From a virus (lineage: Duplodnaviria > Heunggongvirae > Uroviricota > Caudoviricetes): DNA of 18,498 nucleotides. The DNA is taken from the IMG/VR virus record IMGVR_UViG_2657245081_000006; one strand, written 5' to 3'. The position numbers were made by a program, and so were the translations under genes. Below, one piece after another: positions 1,300-18,498 of the stretch (position 1 is the stretch's first letter; each line of letters starts with the position of its first letter). Below the pieces are notes generated by a model, which saw nothing but the letters and a program-made list of their open reading frames with translations, made no database searches and was not told the origin of the DNA.

Positions 1300-1540
1300 G
1301 CCATTATGTCTCCTGCCGTAATCCGATGCTTTTGTTGGTCGCTTTTGTTTATTTCTTTTGGTAAAGAAAATGTTATACATTTGTTGCGTATCATTATGCA
1401 ACCTTAACCATGAATTTAGTTAGCAGGAAAATGGTTATTGAGGAGCTTAAGGATAAATTTCTGGTAAGGAGGACACGTATGGAAGTAGGCAAGTTGGGGA
1501 AACCGCATCCGTTGCTGAATCTGGCATATGTGGGAGTATA

Positions 1541-1570
1541 AGACGCGCAGCGTCGCATCAGGCATTTTTT
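1541..1570. repeat. REP-like palindromic unit (gacgc-gca-gcgtc hairpin followed by T-run)
   Basis: Plus strand agacgcgcagcgtcgcatcaggcattttttt; reverse complement resembles the canonical E. coli REP core GCCTGATGCGACGC...; it lies in the kgtP/rrn intergenic region. Confidence 0.45.
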
Positions 1571-1580
1571 TCACCAACGC

Positions 1581-1611
1581 AAAAAGGCCATCCTGACGGA
1601 TGGCCTTTCGC
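1581..1611 (-). terminator. rrn operon intrinsic terminator (T1-like) downstream of the 5S gene
   Basis: Minus-strand reading aaaggccatccgtcaggatggccttttt: 7-bp GC-rich stem (ggccatc/gatggcc), 5-nt loop, then a T-run; immediately 3' of the 5S rRNA end. Confidence 0.65.
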
Positions 1612-1619
1612 TTGATTTG

Positions 1620-1674
1620 ATGCCTGGCAGTTCCCTACTCTCGCATGGGGAGACCCCACACTACCATCGGCGCT
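1620..1674 (-). rRNA. 5S ribosomal RNA, 3'-terminal 55 nt only (truncated by the N gap)
   Basis: Reverse complement of 1620-1674 reads CGCCGATGGTAGTGTGGGGTCTCCCCATGCGAGAGTAGGGAACTGCCAGGCAT, which is the 3' end of E. coli 5S rRNA. In E. coli K-12 kgtP is adjacent to rrfG, so this is probably the rrfG homolog. Confidence 0.85.
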
Positions 1675-1684
1675 NNNNNNNNNN
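1675..1684. other. assembly gap (run of 10 N)
   Basis: Literal nnnnnnnnnn in the sequence; it interrupts the 5S rRNA gene where the rest of the rrn operon would be expected. Confidence 1.
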
Positions 1685-1735
1685 TGCGGGTGCTGTGTAA
1701 TGGAAATAAAAAGGCCACCTGACGTGGACACCAGA

Positions 1736-2788
1736 TTATTTCCCCACCAGCTCGTTTATCTCTTTCACTGTCTGGTTAAACCGCTCTGACTCAAGCTCAA
1801 CACCTAAGGCCCGACGCCCCAGCGCCATTGCTGCTTTTATTGTGGAACCGGATCCCATAAAAAAATCAGCAACCAGATCACCAGGTCGACTACTGGCATT
1901 GATTATTTGCCTGAGCATATCCGCCGGTTTCTCACACGGATGTTTACCCGGGTAGAACTGAACGGGTTTATGCATCCAGACATCGGTATAAGGCACGGAG
2001 ACTGATACGGAGAAATAGCGCCGGAGAGATTTAAACTCATCCAGCAATTCAGAATATTTGCGATTCAGTGAATCATAAGATGCCACCAGCTGGTGGTGTG
2101 GTTGTTCCAGTTGTTGTTCCTGAAACTTCTCTGCCGCTATACGGGAAAACAGTGCCTGTAACTTCCGATAGTCAGCCTCATTCGGCAACTGCCACTGACT
2201 GGCACCAAACCAGTGGGAAACCATATTTTTCTTACCTGTGGCTTCGGCAATTTGTTTTGCCGTTATACCCAGTTCGGCACGAGCATCCCTGAAATACGAT
2301 ATCAGCGGTGCCATTATGTGCTGTTTGAGTTCCCTTTCTTTTGCCGCATAGCCGTCACTTTTGCCGCGATATGGCCCCTGGTAATGTTCAGCAAACAGAA
2401 CGCGCTCTGTGGCAGGAAAATATGCGCGCAGACTTTCTTTATTACACCCATTCCAACGTCCGGACGGCTTCGCCCAGATGATATGGTTAAGCACGTTGAA
2501 ACGTTCACGCATCATGATCTCAATATCAGATGCCAGGCGATGCCCACAGAACAGGTAAAGGCTTCCGGCAGGTTTTAACACCCGCCAGAACTGGGCCAGA
2601 CAGTGGTCCAGCCACTTAAGGTAATCTTCGTCCCCTTTCCACTGATTGTCCCAGCCGTTGGGTTTCACCTTGAAGTACGGCGGATCGGTAACAATCAGGT
2701 CAATGGAATCATCAGGCAGGGACTGAATAAAATGCAGGCAATCAGCGTTGATTAAATCAGCACTGTTTATTTTTACAGTATTTTTCAT
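1736..2788 (-). CDS. DNA methyltransferase, N6/N4 family (beta-class, DPPY motif IV near N-terminus, FxGxG motif I near C-terminus), 350 aa
   Basis: Translation contains IDLIVTDPPYF and DFFMGSGST; typical orphan phage-type adenine/cytosine-N MTase architecture. No clear SD before the ATG. Confidence 0.8.
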   Translation of the reverse strand: MKNTVKINSADLINADCLHFIQSLPDDSIDLIVTDPPYFKVKPNGWDNQWKGDEDYLKWLDHCLAQFWRVLKPAGSLYLFCGHRLASDIEIMMRERFNVLNHIIWAKPSGRWNGCNKESLRAYFPATERVLFAEHYQGPYRGKSDGYAAKERELKQHIMAPLISYFRDARAELGITAKQIAEATGKKNMVSHWFGASQWQLPNEADYRKLQALFSRIAAEKFQEQQLEQPHHQLVASYDSLNRKYSELLDEFKSLRRYFSVSVSVPYTDVWMHKPVQFYPGKHPCEKPADMLRQIINASSRPGDLVADFFMGSGSTIKAAMALGRRALGVELESERFNQTVKEINELVGK

Positions 2789-3166: not shown

Positions 3167-3263
3167 GACATACCAATAACTCTTGTCTAAAAATCCAGCA
3201 AGATAAAAAGTCAGTATTCACGACCACCAGCGTGTTTACTGTACTGCACCAAGTTTACAGGTA

Positions 3264-3290
3264 CAAAAAACCCGCTCAGTGGCGGGTTTA
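3264..3290. terminator. bidirectional intrinsic terminator
   Basis: aaaaaacccgc-tcagtg-gcgggttt: 5-6 bp GC stem flanked by an A-run on one side and a T-run on the other; the minus-strand reading gives gcgggtttttt. Confidence 0.6.
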
Positions 3291-3418
3291 AGTTGTGTGG
3301 CGAAGTAACCACTCTTAACACACTAATAGCATTTTTGTTATAACACAAGTAGCTCATTCAGTATTTTTAGAATCTTGACTTTCTTAAGCACGGCGAACTC
3401 TGAATACCAAACATAAAA

Positions 3419-4036
3419 TCAATTATCTTCCAGGCCGGATGCTATCAACGAAAGCCTCTCAAAAAACGCTGTAGCAGCCTTGTCCAAAGTTGAATAAGTA
3501 CTGTATTCTCCGTGTTCGGGACCAACCACTACCCATGGTCGTCTTTTTGGGATTCGGGACTTCTCAGAAATCACTGTTCCAGATATACCAATATCAATTG
3601 TTACACCTGTTATTATTTTCTCTTCATCTCTTTCCCTGAACTCAATTGCCATAAATGCCGTTTTTTTTCGTTTCCCGTTTTTAAAAAAATCAAATAAAGC
3701 AAAGCGATGCTCATTAAAATCAACACCCCATCGTCCTTCAGGATAAAGGGCATGAAAGTTGTCATTTACGCTCTGCATCGTCTCATAAGCTTTAACTTCT
3801 AAATCTCCATAGTGCATAGATACCGCGCAGGAGTCACTGGGTAACTGTATTTTCCCAAGATTGAAAACCTTTACTGCTCCAGAACTATGGCATCTTGCCC
3901 GCAATTTATCCCCATTTATACTAATCGGAGAAATATTCCTTAATGTTCCGGGCTGGCTCCCTCCTAAGTAAACGACTGTTAAAGATTGCTTATTTTCAAT
4001 TGCATCAACTAATACATGCTCTACATTTTTATCCAT
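3419..4036 (-). CDS. hypothetical protein, 205 aa, AT-rich cargo gene immediately downstream of Q (no family recognised)
   Basis: ORF 3419..4063; start moved to ATG at 4034-4036 because GGGAGG lies 5 nt upstream (MDKNVEHV...). Sampled lines are about 37 percent GC against about 60 percent in neighbouring prophage genes. Confidence 0.7.
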   Translation of the reverse strand: MDKNVEHVLVDAIENKQSLTVVYLGGSQPGTLRNISPISINGDKLRARCHSSGAVKVFNLGKIQLPSDSCAVSMHYGDLEVKAYETMQSVNDNFHALYPEGRWGVDFNEHRFALFDFFKNGKRKKTAFMAIEFRERDEEKIITGVTIDIGISGTVISEKSRIPKRRPWVVVGPEHGEYSTYSTLDKAATAFFERLSLIASGLEDN

Positions 4037-4037
4037 A

Positions 4038-4074
4038 ATAACCTCCCGATGAACAGGTATCATCAGGAGGTTAT
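4038..4074 (-). promoter_or_regulatory. 15-bp stem / 7-nt loop hairpin sequestering the Shine-Dalgarno of the 205-aa gene
   Basis: Plus strand ataacctcccgatga-acaggta-tcatcaggaggttat. In the minus-sense mRNA the arms pair over 15 bp with one G-U; the SD GGGAGG lies in the 3' arm and the stem ends 1 nt before the AUG. Confidence 0.55.
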
Positions 4075-4111
4075 AATAAAATATGATTATTTACTTTGAT
4101 TGAATTTATTA

Positions 4112-4483
4112 CTATATGTAACAATCAATTTCTAAAGATACCCCCAACATTGCCAGACAACCGTCAATAAACCCTTCAGCTTTCTGCAGTCTGATAACAA
4201 CCTGATTAAGTGATATCCCCAGTTTTACCCCCAACGCCCGTAATGTAACCCCATACACATAATACATTTCCAGTAATTCGTATTGATACGGTTCCTTTTT
4301 CTTAAGAACTGTCATTGCAGAGCTAATGATCAGGCCATCGTCATCGCTACATTGCGGGCGGGATTTTACTTTCGAAGGAATTAATCCCTTAAAACCTGCA
4401 GCAACAGATGACCATTCCACATCCTCGTGATTATTTGCCACCCATGCCCCCCAACGTTCAAGAACCATTTGAATATCACGCAT
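4112..4483 (-). CDS. late-gene antiterminator Q, QuuD/phage-82 type (Phage_antitermQ family), 123 aa
   Basis: MRDIQMVLERWGAWVANNHEDVEWSSVAAGFKGLI... closely matches my recollection of DLP12 QuuD (YbcQ). Start chosen at ATG 4481-4483 with GGAGA 6 nt upstream. Confidence 0.8.
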   Translation of the reverse strand: MRDIQMVLERWGAWVANNHEDVEWSSVAAGFKGLIPSKVKSRPQCSDDDGLIISSAMTVLKKKEPYQYELLEMYYVYGVTLRALGVKLGISLNQVVIRLQKAEGFIDGCLAMLGVSLEIDCYI

Positions 4484-4500
4484 CAACTTTCTCCACAAAA

Positions 4501-5496
4501 TCAGGCCAGCACGCCTATTGCCAGCGCACGATCGATAAAACGAAATATCAGCTCCAGCTGGGAGCCATACTTCTCTTCAAATGCCACGGTATCCGCATGC
4601 AGCTCGTCGTGATGCTTTCTGCACAAAGGCAACACAAAGAGGTCATGCGCTTTTGTACCCATTCCACCCTGACCGTGGCCTATCAGGTGGTGGGGATCAT
4701 CAGCAGGCTTTCCACAACATGCACACGGCTGTGTCTTAACCCAGCGCGTGTACTTTTCATTAACCCAGCGGCGGCGTTTTGGGCGTAACATAAAAGACTC
4801 CGGCGACTCCGGATCCACTTTCAGCGCCAGCACCTTTTTCGCTTTATCCTGGATGATGCTGGTGGCAGGAACCGAAGGCACAAGGTCACTCTCCCGGGTG
4901 ACAGACGGCACAACAGGTTTCGGTAATCTCAGCGCCTTACGGGCTGCGCTTTCAGGTAAGGCATCCGCCAGGTCATTACGAATCAGCCACCAGCACAGTT
5001 CCGGCATTGTCACGGCATGGTTATCATCAAAACCGAGATCCCGACGGACTACAGACAACACCCAGCGGGCACAGTTATCCGTTGCCATTGATTCCAGCCG
5101 TTCCGTGAACTGATCGCGCAGCTGGTTATCGCAGTGCCAGCACAGACGGATTGCGCCCGGAGCGTGTCGCATTGTGGTCATGTTCTCGCTGTGCCAGTCG
5201 GAATGAGGCCACTGGCAGCCTTTTTCACGAAGTAACCAGCTTTCAAGACATTCCACGCCACCAGCACGACGGATCACTGCCTCATTGCGGAACACGGCCC
5301 GAACGGCAGGATCATCCGCCAGCGGTTGTGATACCGCCGGAACGGCACCACTGGCGAAAGATGAATAACGTTCCGGCTCAGGCTCCAGCAGGACACGCCC
5401 CTGCATAAACAGGGGCATCAGCTCTGAACCTGGCCTGAACAATACGATCCCCATACGCGGGGCAATTTCAGGGGTCAGTAGTGCTCTCACGGTCAC
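4501..5496 (-). CDS. DUF968-family phage protein (YdfU-like) with C-terminal Cys/His-rich HNH-like motif, 331 aa
   Basis: C-terminal CACCGKPADDPHHLIGHGQGG...LCRKHHDELH; position directly upstream of Q as in Qin/DLP12-type prophages. Annotated start is GTG at 5494-5496, 1 nt after the KilA-N stop. Confidence 0.7.
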   Translation of the reverse strand: MTVRALLTPEIAPRMGIVLFRPGSELMPLFMQGRVLLEPEPERYSSFASGAVPAVSQPLADDPAVRAVFRNEAVIRRAGGVECLESWLLREKGCQWPHSDWHSENMTTMRHAPGAIRLCWHCDNQLRDQFTERLESMATDNCARWVLSVVRRDLGFDDNHAVTMPELCWWLIRNDLADALPESAARKALRLPKPVVPSVTRESDLVPSVPATSIIQDKAKKVLALKVDPESPESFMLRPKRRRWVNEKYTRWVKTQPCACCGKPADDPHHLIGHGQGGMGTKAHDLFVLPLCRKHHDELHADTVAFEEKYGSQLELIFRFIDRALAIGVLA

Positions 5497-5497
5497 C

Positions 5498-6307
5498 TCA
5501 ATGAACGGTATCGAGCAGCTTTAACAGCTCAGGGAATCGGGATTCGAAGAAATGCGGCTGCGTCTCACGCGGATTTGCGGGACTGGTGATGTTCTTGCCG
5601 AACATGCAGCCTTTCGCCGTCAGCGACCAGAATTTTTTGATGTTGTTAATCCCGGTACGGCTGTATCGTTCGCGCTGCTCGACGATCCCCAGCTTCACCA
5701 TCTGGTGATATGCCTGATTAGCCGTCAGGCGGATACCATACTGCTTCAGCAGTGCACTCAGCGACAGCGTCGGGCGGCTTGAGCCATCAGGCGCGTCAGC
5801 AGGTGCATCAATGGCATAGCGCGGTGCCAGATTCGGTAAGCCAACAGCCTCCTGGAGTTTCTGACAGGCACCAAGCACTGAAGAGTTAGACAGATTTAAC
5901 TCCCGGCGCATAAAGTCCAGCAGGATCACGCCAGCCTGCATCTTGTCAGCAGCCTGTCCGGATAACTTTTCCGGCGCGCTGGTTACCATATCGAAAGTAC
6001 GGATCACCTTCAGATGGAATGACGGGCTGATCCACATTGCATAGGCATACACCAGTTCCTTACAGACATACGTTCCCCGTTCATTTCCCCCATGAATCAC
6101 ACTCACCGGGTCAACACCCAAATTCTGGGTGTTGGTTAATTCATGAACAAGCTCAACAGTTTGTTGGCTGGAAAGAAACTTTCCTGGCTCCTTGGTTCTG
6201 GCATTTGCACCAGATGCTACTGCTGCGCGATGCAGATCGTTCAGGCTGTAACGCCCATAAGCATCACGACGAACTTCAATACCATCAATGACCATCAGAT
6301 TATTCAT
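5498..6307 (-). CDS. KilA-N domain protein / putative antirepressor, 269 aa
   Basis: N-terminal ...YSLNDLHRAA...KPGKFL...GTYVCKELVYAYAMWISPSFHLKVIRTFD is the KilA-N signature; AGGAGA 6 nt upstream of the ATG at 6307. Confidence 0.8.
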   Translation of the reverse strand: MNNLMVIDGIEVRRDAYGRYSLNDLHRAAVASGANARTKEPGKFLSSQQTVELVHELTNTQNLGVDPVSVIHGGNERGTYVCKELVYAYAMWISPSFHLKVIRTFDMVTSAPEKLSGQAADKMQAGVILLDFMRRELNLSNSSVLGACQKLQEAVGLPNLAPRYAIDAPADAPDGSSRPTLSLSALLKQYGIRLTANQAYHQMVKLGIVEQRERYSRTGINNIKKFWSLTAKGCMFGKNITSPANPRETQPHFFESRFPELLKLLDTVH

Positions 6308-9172: not shown

Positions 9173-9393
9173 GCCGCACCTCCGAGATGCTTCATGTTTT
9201 TTCCGGAGCGAAAGGCTATAAGCGGCATACTGACGCGGTAATTACGGCCCAGCGGTTCACAAATCACCTTCTGACATTCACGGTCAACCAGGCTAACACG
9301 TAGAACATGCCCTGCAGGCGTGGTGTACCACTGACCGGGGCGAGGACAACGGAAAGTCTGATTGGTAAATCGTTTGAAAATATTCCGGATCAT
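9169..9393 (-). CDS. hypothetical small protein, 74 aa, translationally coupled between the Rha-domain gene and the O-like gene
   Basis: ATGA overlaps at both ends (9390-9393 and 9169-9172); no family recognised. Confidence 0.5.
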   Translation of the reverse strand: MIRNIFKRFTNQTFRCPRPGQWYTTPAGHVLRVSLVDRECQKVICEPLGRNYRVSMPLIAFRSGKNMKHLGGAA

Positions 9394-10538
9394 TTGCGCC
9401 CCCTTACCTCTGAAGAGTTCAGCGACGAATGAATAAGACGGGCAAGAAATGCCGCATCGTTAATTCGGTCATACAGACTTACAGCCAGAGGTGATTCAGC
9501 TTTTTCCAGCATGGGATAAAGCTGCTGCAACCAGACCTGATGAATTGATGAAATGTAGGAATAGAGAACGCTGGCGTTATGTGCAACGTCGCTCGGTACA
9601 GCGGGCTTTGAAAGCTGTTTCTCCATCTGGTTAAAGGCATTGATGTATGCCTCTTTGAACTGGGCAGCACGTTTACCCGTGAAACCCATAGCAAGAAACG
9701 CAAAGCCGTCGCGGGTTATTTGATAGCAAGGTAGTTTGCGGCCTGTGCAATCGGTGTAATCACTCACCGAAAAATTGCGGGCAGTGAATGATGCGGAACA
9801 TTCAAGCGTGCGGATCTTTTTCAGTACATCGTCATGACGTTTGGAGAAGAAGTTGGCAACAGCCAGGGATGAAGTAACAGCCTGACCATCAACGATGGCA
9901 ATTTCAGGTTGAGTGAGGGTTGGGATCGTAGCCATGATGGCAGTCTCCGATAACAGTGAATTACCTTCACCACCGGAAACGCCAATTTCGCTGGTGGTGA
10001 ACTGAACGGGGTTGGCGTAACCGGCGTTATCGGAAACCGGCGCACCTTTCGGTGCCCCCGTCCAGCCCACCATAATTTGGGTGTGCACAGACGCAGACGA
10101 TAAAAAAGACGCTGGCGCGTCATATATCGCCGATAACATTTCCAGGACGCCAATCCCGACACCCGCTTTATAAGGTGCCTGAACAGTGTAACGTCCCGGA
10201 ATGGCAGAATCAATGTGCTGGTGGTCCTTCACACTCAACAAAATCACGCCTGAATTTCCACAAAGGACTAAAGCACTCATGCGGGTAGTCTTTGCGAAGA
10301 TAGATAACGCGCTGTGTTTCTGGCTCCCAACGAATAACATGGACATAAAGCCCTCTTCCGTCACGAAACCAGCGGTTAAGTTCCTGCACAACTCGCCCCC
10401 CACAGTCAGGTAAAGTTCTCTGTGGTTACTTACAGCCAGGTGATTTGGTAATCTGCATTCATGCCGTAACAACAGGTGTTCAGCGACGCTGACCACCAGC
10501 TGTTGCGACAAACGGTTATTTGCCGTTAAACTGTTCAT
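9390..10538 (-). CDS. protein with C-terminal Rha (phage regulatory protein Rha) domain and an unrecognised about 200-aa N-terminal region, 382 aa; alternative start at 9935 would give a 181-aa Rha-only protein
   Basis: Residues about 211-308, IVDGQAVTSSLAVANFFSKRHDDVLKKI...YQITRDGFAFLAMGFTGKRAAQFKEAYINAFNQME, are the Rha signature. ATG 10536-10538 overlaps the cII-like stop (ATGA). Confidence 0.6.
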   Translation of the reverse strand: MNSLTANNRLSQQLVVSVAEHLLLRHECRLPNHLAVSNHRELYLTVGGELCRNLTAGFVTEEGFMSMLFVGSQKHSALSIFAKTTRMSALVLCGNSGVILLSVKDHQHIDSAIPGRYTVQAPYKAGVGIGVLEMLSAIYDAPASFLSSASVHTQIMVGWTGAPKGAPVSDNAGYANPVQFTTSEIGVSGGEGNSLLSETAIMATIPTLTQPEIAIVDGQAVTSSLAVANFFSKRHDDVLKKIRTLECSASFTARNFSVSDYTDCTGRKLPCYQITRDGFAFLAMGFTGKRAAQFKEAYINAFNQMEKQLSKPAVPSDVAHNASVLYSYISSIHQVWLQQLYPMLEKAESPLAVSLYDRINDAAFLARLIHSSLNSSEVRGRK

Positions 10539-11420: not shown

Positions 11421-12095
11421 ATGAAAACAGTCCATGACATCCGGCGGTCTAACGCCAGAAAACTGAGAGATGGTGTTGGCGGGAATTCTTCCTTTGCCAC
11501 CATGATTGATCGCGAGCCAACCCAGACCAGCAGGTTTATGGGAGATGGTGCTACTAAAAATATCGGTGACAGCATGGCACGGCACATCGAAAAATGTTTC
11601 GACCTGCCTGTCGGATGGCTTGATCAAGAACACCAGACAACAAACATCACAAAAAAACCTGATGTTTCAATTACTAACAAACAAATAACGTTAGTCCCTG
11701 TCATATCATGGGTACAGGCCGGAGCATGGAAAGAAGTTGGCTATTCTGAGGTTGATTTGAGCACAGCAGAAACTTATCCCTGCCCTGTACCCTGTGGCGA
11801 AATGACTTATATCTTGCGGGTGATTGGTGATTCAATGATTGATGAGTACCGCCCGGGAGACATGATTTTTGTTGATCCTGAAGTCCCTGCCTGCCACGGT
11901 GACGACGTTATTGCATTGATGCACGATACAGGCGAAACCACCTTCAAGCGGTTGATAGAAGATGGAACACAGCGTTACCTCAAAGCATTAAACCCAAACT
12001 GGCCTGAACCTTACATTAAGATCAACGGTAATTGCTCTATAATTGGTACAGTGATTTTCTCAGGAAAACCAAGAAGATACAAAATAAAGGCCTAA
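11421..12095 (+). CDS. cI: CI-like prophage repressor, HTH plus S24 (LexA-like) autopeptidase domain, 224 aa
   Basis: C-terminal VPVISWVQAGAW...RVIGDSM...PGDMIFVD...GDDVIALMHDTGETTFKRL is the S24 peptidase signature; N-terminal HTH; no SD, consistent with a leaderless PRM transcript. Confidence 0.9.
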   Translation: MKTVHDIRRSNARKLRDGVGGNSSFATMIDREPTQTSRFMGDGATKNIGDSMARHIEKCFDLPVGWLDQEHQTTNITKKPDVSITNKQITLVPVISWVQAGAWKEVGYSEVDLSTAETYPCPVPCGEMTYILRVIGDSMIDEYRPGDMIFVDPEVPACHGDDVIALMHDTGETTFKRLIEDGTQRYLKALNPNWPEPYIKINGNCSIIGTVIFSGKPRRYKIKA

Positions 12096-12106
12096 TCAAT
12101 ATTTAT

Positions 12107-12130
12107 AACCTGCTTCGGCAGGTTTTTTTA
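12107..12130 (+). terminator. intrinsic terminator downstream of cI
   Basis: aacctgc-ttcg-gcaggtt followed by ttttttt. Confidence 0.65.
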
Positions 12131-12133
12131 TAC

Positions 12134-12166
12134 TTGACAATGTACCCTTGAGATACATAATGTATC
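12134..12166 (+). promoter_or_regulatory. PL-like promoter with overlapping operator (OL)
   Basis: -35 TTGACA (12134-12139), 16-17 nt spacer, -10 CATAAT/ATAATG (12156-12162); operator ATGTA-N9-TACAT at 12140-12158 and a perfect 15-bp palindrome GATACATAATGTATC at 12152-12166. Confidence 0.6.
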
Positions 12167-12598
12167 TAAAAGAAACATAACACAGGCAAGATTAAACTAA
12201 ATTTGGTTGTAACACGGCGTATGGCACATGCGTCGTTAGCGGTCTGGGGACGTTAAAGGGGACAATCCACTCCTTGCTCGAGCAAACAAACCAGGTAGCC
12301 GGAATGTGCAAGTCAATGATGATGCTGATAAGACGCCTAACCAGCGTGGCGATTCGGTTTGACGCCTGGGAAGAGACCAGGGTGCAACGATGAGGGCATT
12401 TATGGAACCGCGACAAAGTGTGGTGCCGTAACTGGCTAAGTGCTCTCAGCGTTGTGGTGAATGCGCAGGCTGATGCGCGAAAGACATTGCAGCTATTGCG
12501 GAAAAGAGCTGTTCGGCGGGGCAATTAAACGCCCGTGAGAGTCTGAAATAACCGCAAGCCGGAGATCAGCACCGGTCACCACAACAGCCACTGCTTTG

Positions 12599-17509: not shown

Positions 17510-17929
17510 TTACTCATCATCAATAGATGATACGCAATATTTATTTTTAAATTTAAGGTTCTTTGGCGTAACTTCATCAGAGATATCAAAACCGTCCAGA
17601 ATTCTATTGAATGTAGCTTCTGGCATATCATCATGAACAGAAATCTCACCCGATCGCTGCTTTCTAACCATGTTATCCACTCGCCAAATTATAGCTTCAG
17701 CGTAAACAACATAACTTGGATGCTTGATAAAGCGATGATCACCAGAATTCAAGACGCAAGACGGATCGTGGGGGACACCATCCTTGATACTAGAAATATT
17801 AACAACTAAAACACAATAACAATCGTTAACGGGGTAATAAACAGGATCATTACAAATCACATGAAGATGATTGCATGGCCCAGTTGGGGCAAGCACAGTT
17901 CCTTTCCTGTATGGCTGATAATCCGTCAT
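17510..17929 (-). CDS. hypothetical protein, candidate toxin partner of the Panacea-domain gene, 139 aa
   Basis: ATGA start/stop overlap with the upstream Panacea gene (17926-17929); AT-rich; CYCVLVVNISSIK and WRVDNMVRK segments loosely resemble MazF/PemK-like strands by eye only. Confidence 0.55.
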   Translation of the reverse strand: MTDYQPYRKGTVLAPTGPCNHLHVICNDPVYYPVNDCYCVLVVNISSIKDGVPHDPSCVLNSGDHRFIKHPSYVVYAEAIIWRVDNMVRKQRSGEISVHDDMPEATFNRILDGFDISDEVTPKNLKFKNKYCVSSIDDE

Positions 17930-18498
17930 GATAATTGCAAAGAAAATTCCTTAAGTTTCTGAGATTCTTCCATTTTGCCAATTATGCGATTAGCCTCATC
18001 CTCGCTTTTACCCTCACTGATCAGCATTTCTTTCAGGTCTATAGGCTTACGAGAATTGCCAGGATCGTGCCACTCTGGACAAACGCTTTCTAGATGCGTC
18101 ATATTTGCGAGATCAAATCGGTTCATATGCCCATACCGAGAATAGATTTCATCTAAAATCCGGATATCTGCACGACTCAATTCATCAAAGACCTCGTCTG
18201 CATCCATTTCCCTCGGATCTGAACGCAACGATACATTATGCCCGTTCGTCTCTATCAAGTTGTACCAGTAGTCACCAATGCCTTCAGCCTTACCGCGAAT
18301 CAAGTTCAGCGTATTCGACATGACTGGTCCAAATTTCATAGAGTAAAGGCTATCTTCGCCGATCATCCTGCCATGCTTCAAAATCGACTGGCGGTTAGAC
18401 AGATAGAGCAACTTCATCAATTTCAGATATGCCATGCGCCCACCTCGCTTAAGAAGTAGGTATGCAGCCATTTGAGCTACTTTTTCTTCGCAAAACAT
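17926..18498 (-). CDS. Panacea-domain (DUF4065, SocA/PanA-like) protein, 190 aa; start codon is the last 3 nt of the window
   Basis: N-terminal ...MAYLKLMKLLYLSNRQSI...SMKFGPVMSN matches the Panacea core (LKLxKLLY ... GPV); AT-rich. Confidence 0.7.
   Translation of the reverse strand: MFCEEKVAQMAAYLLLKRGGRMAYLKLMKLLYLSNRQSILKHGRMIGEDSLYSMKFGPVMSNTLNLIRGKAEGIGDYWYNLIETNGHNVSLRSDPREMDADEVFDELSRADIRILDEIYSRYGHMNRFDLANMTHLESVCPEWHDPGNSRKPIDLKEMLISEGKSEDEANRIIGKMEESQKLKEFSLQLS

Follow-up and report, generated by a model that had tools for sequence, protein, structure and literature searches.

Known systems with sequestered ribosome-binding sites

Several genes are known whose Shine-Dalgarno (SD) sequence is buried in an mRNA hairpin. 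Work by McPheeters and colleagues in 1986 and by Gott and colleagues in 1988 is said to have described silencing of this kind in early transcripts of the T4 genes e (lysozyme), soc and I-TevI. In these genes, the longer early RNA buries both the SD and the AUG in a hairpin, and only RNA starting inside the hairpin is translated; the same arrangement is a candidate at the locus described here. In T4, an internal late or middle promoter has been mapped, whereas here only a conserved TAnnnT hexamer is found at the foot of the stem. The present locus also differs in belonging to a lambdoid prophage, where the expected "on" state would be lysogeny and not late infection.

The fold-back inhibition of IS10 and IS50 shields the transposase gene from read-through transcripts that originate outside the element. 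The tnpA gene of IS200 likewise has an SD-sequestering stem-loop (PMC4513863). The likeness to the present locus is that an upstream complement of the ribosome-binding site protects a mobile or accessory gene from read-through expression; however, the IS hairpins control transposase genes and are experimentally verified, whereas the one reported here is predicted, and the gene behind it encodes a WYL-domain protein and lies within a regulatory gap of a phage. RNA thermometers such as ROSE and fourU also pair the SD within a 5′ hairpin, but they are weak and imperfect stems that melt at 37–42°C, and the 15-bp stem described below is predicted to remain closed above 60°C.

The genomic position of the hairpin invites comparison with the late promoters of lambdoid phages, for which a Q-PR′-tR′ cassette concept has been put forward (bioRxiv 10.1101/651190). 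In phage 21, the Q21 cassette lies in the 91 nt after the Q stop codon and comprises a −35 element, two 8-bp QBE subsites, a −10 element, the start site, the SDPE and a terminator ending at +50 (annotation of OL657228). The present locus shares with phage 21 and the Stx phages an antiterminator of the same Q21 family and the same downstream promoter and leader module, in which a TAnnnT hexamer precedes G(T/A)TAAGAGTGG and a U-run hairpin. The promoter of phage 21 and Sp5 comes immediately after the Q stop codon or overlaps it, whereas here a 0.7-kb sense gene with a locked SD is interposed.

Organization of the locus and the WYL-domain gene

The window, by which we mean the whole 18,498-nt stretch of DNA that was analyzed, is an Escherichia coli lambdoid prophage remnant adjoining kgtP. 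A cI-like repressor is encoded on the plus strand, and the early genes follow one another on the minus strand in the order CII-like, Rha/Ash, PerC, Dam, LexA-like, RusA, KilA-N and DUF968. These are followed by Q, the hairpin, a 205-aa ORF, a small phrog_331 gene and a DNA methyltransferase gene; the coordinates of the features under study are collected in Table 1. The prophage ends directly after the DNA methyltransferase gene, against kgtP (window 1401–1736). Intact relatives continue at this point with the lysis genes essD-rrrD-Rz and the terminase genes, and the lysis and structural genes are therefore absent on that side of the remnant.

Table 1. Features of the Q to PR′ region of the window (positions in the window; all on the minus strand)
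Feature	Position	Details	Basis
Q21-family antiterminator Q	4112–4498 (−)	Likely start ATG 4483	Pfam PF06530, E value 5e-48; PDB Q21 chains 6p18/6jnx, E value 2.6e-10
TATTAT, a -10-like hexamer (5′ stem foot)	4073–4078 (−)	Candidate internal promoter with start inside the 5′ arm	Reads TATAAT in v1 and TACAGT in the second allele
Predicted SD-locking hairpin	4038–4074 (−)	5′ arm 4074–4060, loop 4059–4053, 3′ arm 4052–4038	Fold and both alleles
Anti-SD mimic ACCUCCU in the 5′ arm	4065–4071 (−)		Sequence; pairs with GGGAGGU in the fold
Shine-Dalgarno GGGAGG	4042–4047 (−)	5 nt before ATG	Sequence; P(unpaired) 0.0003–0.004
Cargo gene, 205-aa stand-alone WYL-domain protein (phrog_8498)	3419–4036 (−)		
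Predicted cognate late promoter PR′	3320–3348 (−)	-35 TTGTGT 3348–3343; -10 TAGTGT 3325–3320; predicted start a3313	
First terminator-like hairpin of the PR′ leader	3265–3286 (−)	CCCGC...GCGGG + U6	Positive terminator score

The 205-aa protein has the WYL (Sm-like beta-barrel) fold and belongs to a stand-alone WYL family of about 490 cluster representatives. The N-terminal wHTH DNA-binding domain of BrxR/CapW/DriD-type WYL regulators was not found in it, nor was any toxin domain, and PADLOC gave only weak WYL accessory matches (E value, 1e-3). No close relative of the gene was present in the phages collection, and a literature search returned no report of either the WYL gene or the SD-lock hairpin. 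The gene had been predicted to be an accessory (cargo) gene, and this is supported; the further proposal that it encodes a toxic or abortive-infection effector is not, as neither a toxin nor a defence signature was found.

The start codon was assigned to ATG 4036 because this agrees with the RefSeq annotation of an identical locus (L002, CDS 5295–5912), because one allele (L032) has GTG at the same codon and because the second allele does not keep the upstream in-frame ATG 4063 in frame. For the same reason, and as this codon has no SD, a uORF or N-terminal extension beginning at ATG 4063 was considered and rejected.

Hairpin over the Shine-Dalgarno sequence

In the minus-strand RNA, nucleotides 4074–4038 read AUAACCUCCUGAUGA-UACCUGU-UCAUCGGGAGGUUAU and fold around a 7-nt loop into an uninterrupted stem of 15 pairs, of which only U4065-G4047 is a wobble. 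Between the stem and the AUG at 4036–4034 stands a lone unpaired nucleotide, U4037, and the SD lies wholly within the 3′ arm. The geometry given in the original prediction, a 37-nt element with a 15-bp stem ending 1 nt before the AUG and with GGGAGG (4047–4042) enclosed in its 3′ arm, was thus exact. The heptamer ACCUCCU is also the sequence at the 3′ (anti-SD) end of 16S rRNA. Its occurrence in the 5′ arm makes the lock a literal mimic of the anti-SD.

The minimum free energy (MFE) of the hairpin was −22.9 kcal/mol as calculated by ViennaRNA, and the MFE structure accounted for 65% of the ensemble. Dinucleotide shuffles of the same sequence averaged −7.2 ± 2.2 kcal/mol and none of 200 was as stable (z = −7.25). 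The hairpin is also the highest-ranking short-range inverted repeat of the 18.5-kb window. It was retained in 100-nt contexts and, when 171 nt were folded, in both the MFE and the centroid structure. When the region from −60 to +40 was folded, the mean probability of being unpaired over positions −16 to −4 of the cargo gene was 0.004, compared to 0.08–0.74 for the same measure at 17 other gene starts in the window. These values uphold the earlier view that the SD is held in an unusually strong structure. Temperature, which had been listed among the possible unlocking cues, found no support, because the predicted P(unpaired) of the SD was 0.0002–0.0005 over 25–45°C and did not exceed 0.001 across 25–60°C. 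An Rfam scan of positions 3200–4200 gave nothing at gathering score, with chance-level matches only (E values, 0.07–0.9).

Conservation of the hairpin

The hairpin was found in two alleles only, which are 79% identical over the C-terminal part of Q, the hairpin and the gene start; no further allele carrying it was found. The second allele differs from the first at 79% nucleotide identity and 70–72% amino acid identity. Its hairpin has a predicted energy of −17.7 kcal/mol, with an SD accessibility of 0.001–0.09 depending on the context folded, and its stem shows three changes that keep pairing (A-U to G-U, C-G to U-G and U-G to U-A) and one break (A-G). All nine intact sequence variants fold, at −13.8 to −24.3 kcal/mol. 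The commonest variant of the first allele replaces a G-C pair with G-U, variant v1 extends the stem to 18 bp by pairing into the AUG, and a rare first-allele variant, G4042A (n = 3), breaks one pair and also weakens the SD. Across the variants, four of six stem changes keep pairing (as G-U or A-U) and two variants break one pair each.

The number of distinct hairpin sequences was only four, and no two-sided compensatory change was seen among them (four one-sided wobble-keeping and two broken cells); in the shuffling control for covariation, all 500 shuffles reached the observed values. Three observations lend weaker support to selection on the hairpin. The 5′ arm differs between alleles at two of its 15 nt, compared to an estimated 37% of the adjacent spacer, a figure read from the allele alignment (P = 0.045), and this spacer also contains an 11-nt indel. 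No function besides pairing is known for the 5′ arm. The non-Watson-Crick pairs, the two breaks excepted, are G-U on the mRNA strand, which argues for a role as sense RNA and against a DNA operator.

Distant homologues of the gene in other bacteria, together with an enterobacterial homologue of 44% identity, occur in other contexts and have a free SD (0.54–0.61). The lock is therefore a property of this phage context rather than of the gene family. In one further locus (L157; IMG/VR 2563366940_000006, about 11752–12560), an IS1 element is inserted exactly in the hairpin loop and separates the arms; the predicted SD accessibility there rises to 0.24, making this locus a natural unlocked variant.

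Position of the late promoter

The late promoter PR′ was placed by comparison of about 100 related loci and by means of a published dRNA-seq start site of phage Sp5. A module downstream of the cargo gene, GTTAAGAGTGGTTACTTCGCCACACAACTTAAACCCGCCACTGAGCGGGTTTTTTG (3319–3264), is common to phage PhiR40_1, the second allele and more than 120 IMG/VR contigs with different Q alleles. Just 5′ of this module lies an allele-specific element of about 30 nt, consisting of a dyad, A5 or T4, 6–8 nt and TAnnnT. The dyads are of the types GCGGTCCGC, GCGTACGC, TTTACGTACGTAAA, TTTACAATCGTAAA and TTGTGTTATAACAA, the last of which is the one borne by PR′ of the window. In the 99 loci with a recognizable Q gene, the type of the dyad tracks the type of the Q helix-turn-helix without exception, and the match holds at any distance between the Q stop codon and the module, from 38 to 3011 nt. 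This perfect co-variation suggests that the dyad is probably a Q-binding element. In four cargo-free loci, the element directly follows Q, and the distance between stop codon and module is 38 nt.

The Stx2a phage Sp5 (Sakai) has the same layout overlapping its Q stop codon: TTTACGATCGTAAA ... TATCAT GATAAGAGTGG.... The PR′ start and the 3′ end of StxS were mapped 258 nt apart in Sp5 by dRNA-seq and Term-seq (Sy et al., 2020; PMC7547250). After applying an offset of +142 between genome versions, the published StxS 3′ end fell exactly on the terminator GCCAGCC...GGCTGGCUUUUUU, and the same offset placed the PR′ start at the seventh base of GATAAGA, 7 nt after TATCAT. Taken together, the shared module, the allele-specific dyad, the cargo-free loci and the Sp5 start indicate that the element is PR′ with a Q-specific site. 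In sequence terms, PR′ of this prophage family can be recognized by a Q-type dyad, an A/T run and TAnnnT immediately before the leader that the loci have in common (G(T/A)TAAGAGTGG...hairpin-U6), and these features can serve to locate late promoters in many prophages of E. coli, those of Stx phages among them. The first hairpin of the leader may be a terminator or a pause site; in Sp5, the PR′ RNA StxS continues beyond this hairpin to +258.

PR′ thus lies downstream of the cargo gene, which, together with its hairpin, is flanked by Q on one side and by the cognate promoter of Q on the other. This position had been overlooked in the original prediction, and it changes the set of transcripts that carry the hairpin.

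The gap between Q and PR′ as a cargo slot

In the loci compared (L015–L134), the interval from Q to PR′ spans 0 to about 3 kb and is a hotspot for cargo. The 49 distinct sequences downstream of Q comprised one without cargo, 42 with antisense ORFs only, one Dcm-like methylase and five WYL variants. Antisense-only cargo thus occupies 42 of the 48 distinct cargo-bearing gaps, and includes the nmpC-like porin of the QuuD type. The Dcm-like methylase, with which its gap starts, is in sense orientation and has an unlocked SD. The WYL gene is the only cargo that stands directly after Q in sense, and its SD is locked. It accompanies this Q allele in 74 of the 75 complete E. coli genomes that have the allele.

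Proposed translational lock

The hairpin is probably a cis-acting translational lock on read-through early transcripts. With both arms present in the mRNA, ACCUCCU of the 5′ arm would pair with GGGAGGU of the WYL gene and block 30S initiation. Unaided 30S binding should be very inefficient according to the folding model, in line with the earlier proposal that translation is off by default. Because the gene lies in sense between Q and PR′, the transcripts that cross it would be read-through of the early (cro-to-Q) operon. On such putative read-through RNA, the WYL gene would be transcribed yet remain essentially untranslated, and the lock would thereby insulate an accessory gene from the lytic transcription programme. 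Almost all other cargo in the slot would obtain the same insulation from its antisense orientation.

Translation would need an RNA that lacks the 5′ arm. One candidate route to release is transcription that begins within the 5′ arm, past the conserved TAnnnT hexamer of the stem foot, much as in T4 e and soc or in IS10 fold-back inhibition; cleavage of the stem by an endonuclease and low-level breathing of the stem are two other candidates. When RNAs with 5′ ends 6–12 nt inside the arm (26–32 nt upstream of the AUG) were folded, the predicted P(unpaired) of the SD was 0.27–0.69. A promoter search between the Q stop codon and the stem and inside the hairpin, by consensus scan and position weight matrix (PWM), found none above chance, although the PWM is not able to exclude one. 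The stem-foot hexamer scored 2.4–6.5, compared to a median shuffle maximum of 7.1, on a home-made matrix that gives even proven PR′ promoters only 5.6–9.8 and hence scores them at chance level. Translational coupling, which had also been suggested as a means of unfolding, is unlikely to link the gene to Q, because the stem starts 38 nt after the Q stop codon, or 33 nt after it in the second allele, and ATG 4063 in the 5′ arm has neither an SD nor a conserved frame.

The mechanism itself is a textbook one, and a strong, context-specific SD lock on a gene between Q and PR′ is a new example of it rather than a new mechanism. If the lock works, it shows that a temperate phage can carry a sense accessory gene within its regulatory backbone without expressing it in lytic growth, and it points to strong selection on the dosage or the timing of the 205-aa WYL protein. 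A more far-reaching and unlikely reading is that the gap is a recombination-protected slot, given that a phage whose Q is parted from its site is not viable, and that the hairpin lets a sense passenger live there by a two-transcript switch of the T4 e type in which the lytic read-through RNA is silenced and an arm-internal start is used in lysogens. In a bolder variant, the WYL protein, being Sm-like and nucleic acid-binding, would be part of the Q/late-switch circuitry instead of a passenger.

Alternative explanations

Other functions of the hairpin were weighed against the translational lock. It is unlikely that the hairpin serves mainly as an intrinsic terminator or insulator that ends the Q transcript, with SD occlusion as a by-product, although several features resemble one. 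The stem contains an 11-bp GC-rich core followed by UUAUUAU, which could halt unmodified RNA polymerase before the cargo gene and PR′; A and U alone make up the first 7 nt of the tail, and the foot, AUAA/UUAU, is similar to an A tract paired with a U tract. The hairpin lies at +38 to +74 after the Q stop codon, where other gap types have terminators, so it may have a partial role in termination. Most other gaps have a GC-rich hairpin 2–70 nt past the Q stop codon, most of those with antisense cargo begin with a hairpin or terminator just after it, and clear sense-strand terminators follow Q in L019, L057 and PhiR40_1. In most other gaps, however, the hairpin serves the antisense cargo gene. 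Moreover, the full 15-bp stem is followed by UAUGGAUA, which is not a U tract, and the 11-bp core by UUAUUAUG. On a hand score of the d'Aubenton-Carafa 1990 type, the hairpin obtained −7 to −33 in all stem registers of both alleles, whereas of six reference hairpins given the same score, four (those of the phage 21 terminator, Sp5 tR′, the PR′ leader and L019) reached +15 to +26. An automated terminator scan missed both the leader terminator and the SD hairpin (3263–3290 and 4038–4074), because it lets stems grow across A-U pairs into the U tract and then fails its own criterion for the tail. An identity with tR′, the Q-dependent late terminator, which would make the cargo the first late gene, was favored at first because of position, as the cassette of phage 21 ends 91 nt past the Q stop codon and the hairpin here about 75–80 nt past it. 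This identity was dropped, and is now considered extremely improbable, on the evidence of the downstream PR′ module, the Q-type dyad and the Sp5 start. The Q-type-specific promoter that tracks the Q helix-turn-helix in the 99 loci lies about 690 nt further downstream (3348–3320) and matches the mapped Sp5 start site, and the 38-nt stretch from the Q stop codon to the stem yielded no promoter, QBE-like repeat or pause element. With PR′ downstream of the cargo gene, the hairpin is not a Q-dependent terminator.

An RNA processing or stability element, either an RNase III-type target whose cleavage activates translation or a 3′ stabilizer of the Q mRNA, is quite improbable as the main function. 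A long duplex at an operon junction (15 bp, and 18 bp in v1) would suit it, the lambda N leader offers a parallel, and processing was one of the ways of unfolding named in the original prediction. Typical E. coli RNase III substrates, on the other hand, have about 20 bp, more than the 15 bp found here, and internal-loop features are absent. It is very improbable that the 37-bp palindrome acts as DNA and not as RNA, whether as the operator of a dimeric regulator, an option that had been raised for this near-perfect dyad, or as an antisense promoter into Q. The plus strand at 4050–4077 does contain TGAACA-16-TATAAT (10 of 12 consensus positions), the highest-ranking sigma-70-like match over the 1.9 kb covered by the scan, and it points antisense into Q in the manner of lambda paQ; this match nevertheless decays in v1 and in the second allele (CTGAAC-17-TACTGT, score 4.9). 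The departures from symmetry in the variants are mostly G-U on the mRNA strand; they disrupt the dyad as DNA and would be A-C on the other strand. The neighboring protein lacks a DNA-binding HTH.

Other features of the prophage

Two Rfam families matched the minus strand of the window at gathering score, namely isrK (10102–10178) and C4 antisense RNA (9990–10077). This region (9990–10178) corresponds to a P1/Gifsy-1-like c4/isrK-ant module in the early operon. As the matches lie inside the long Rha/Ash ORF (9390–10538), the real start of this ORF is probably further downstream. At the far end of the prophage (window 17510–18498, minus strand), a 139-aa ORF had no family match. Upstream of it, an ORF with a SocA/Panacea antitoxin domain (17926–18498, minus strand) runs off the end of the window, and these two ORFs may form a toxin-antitoxin pair.
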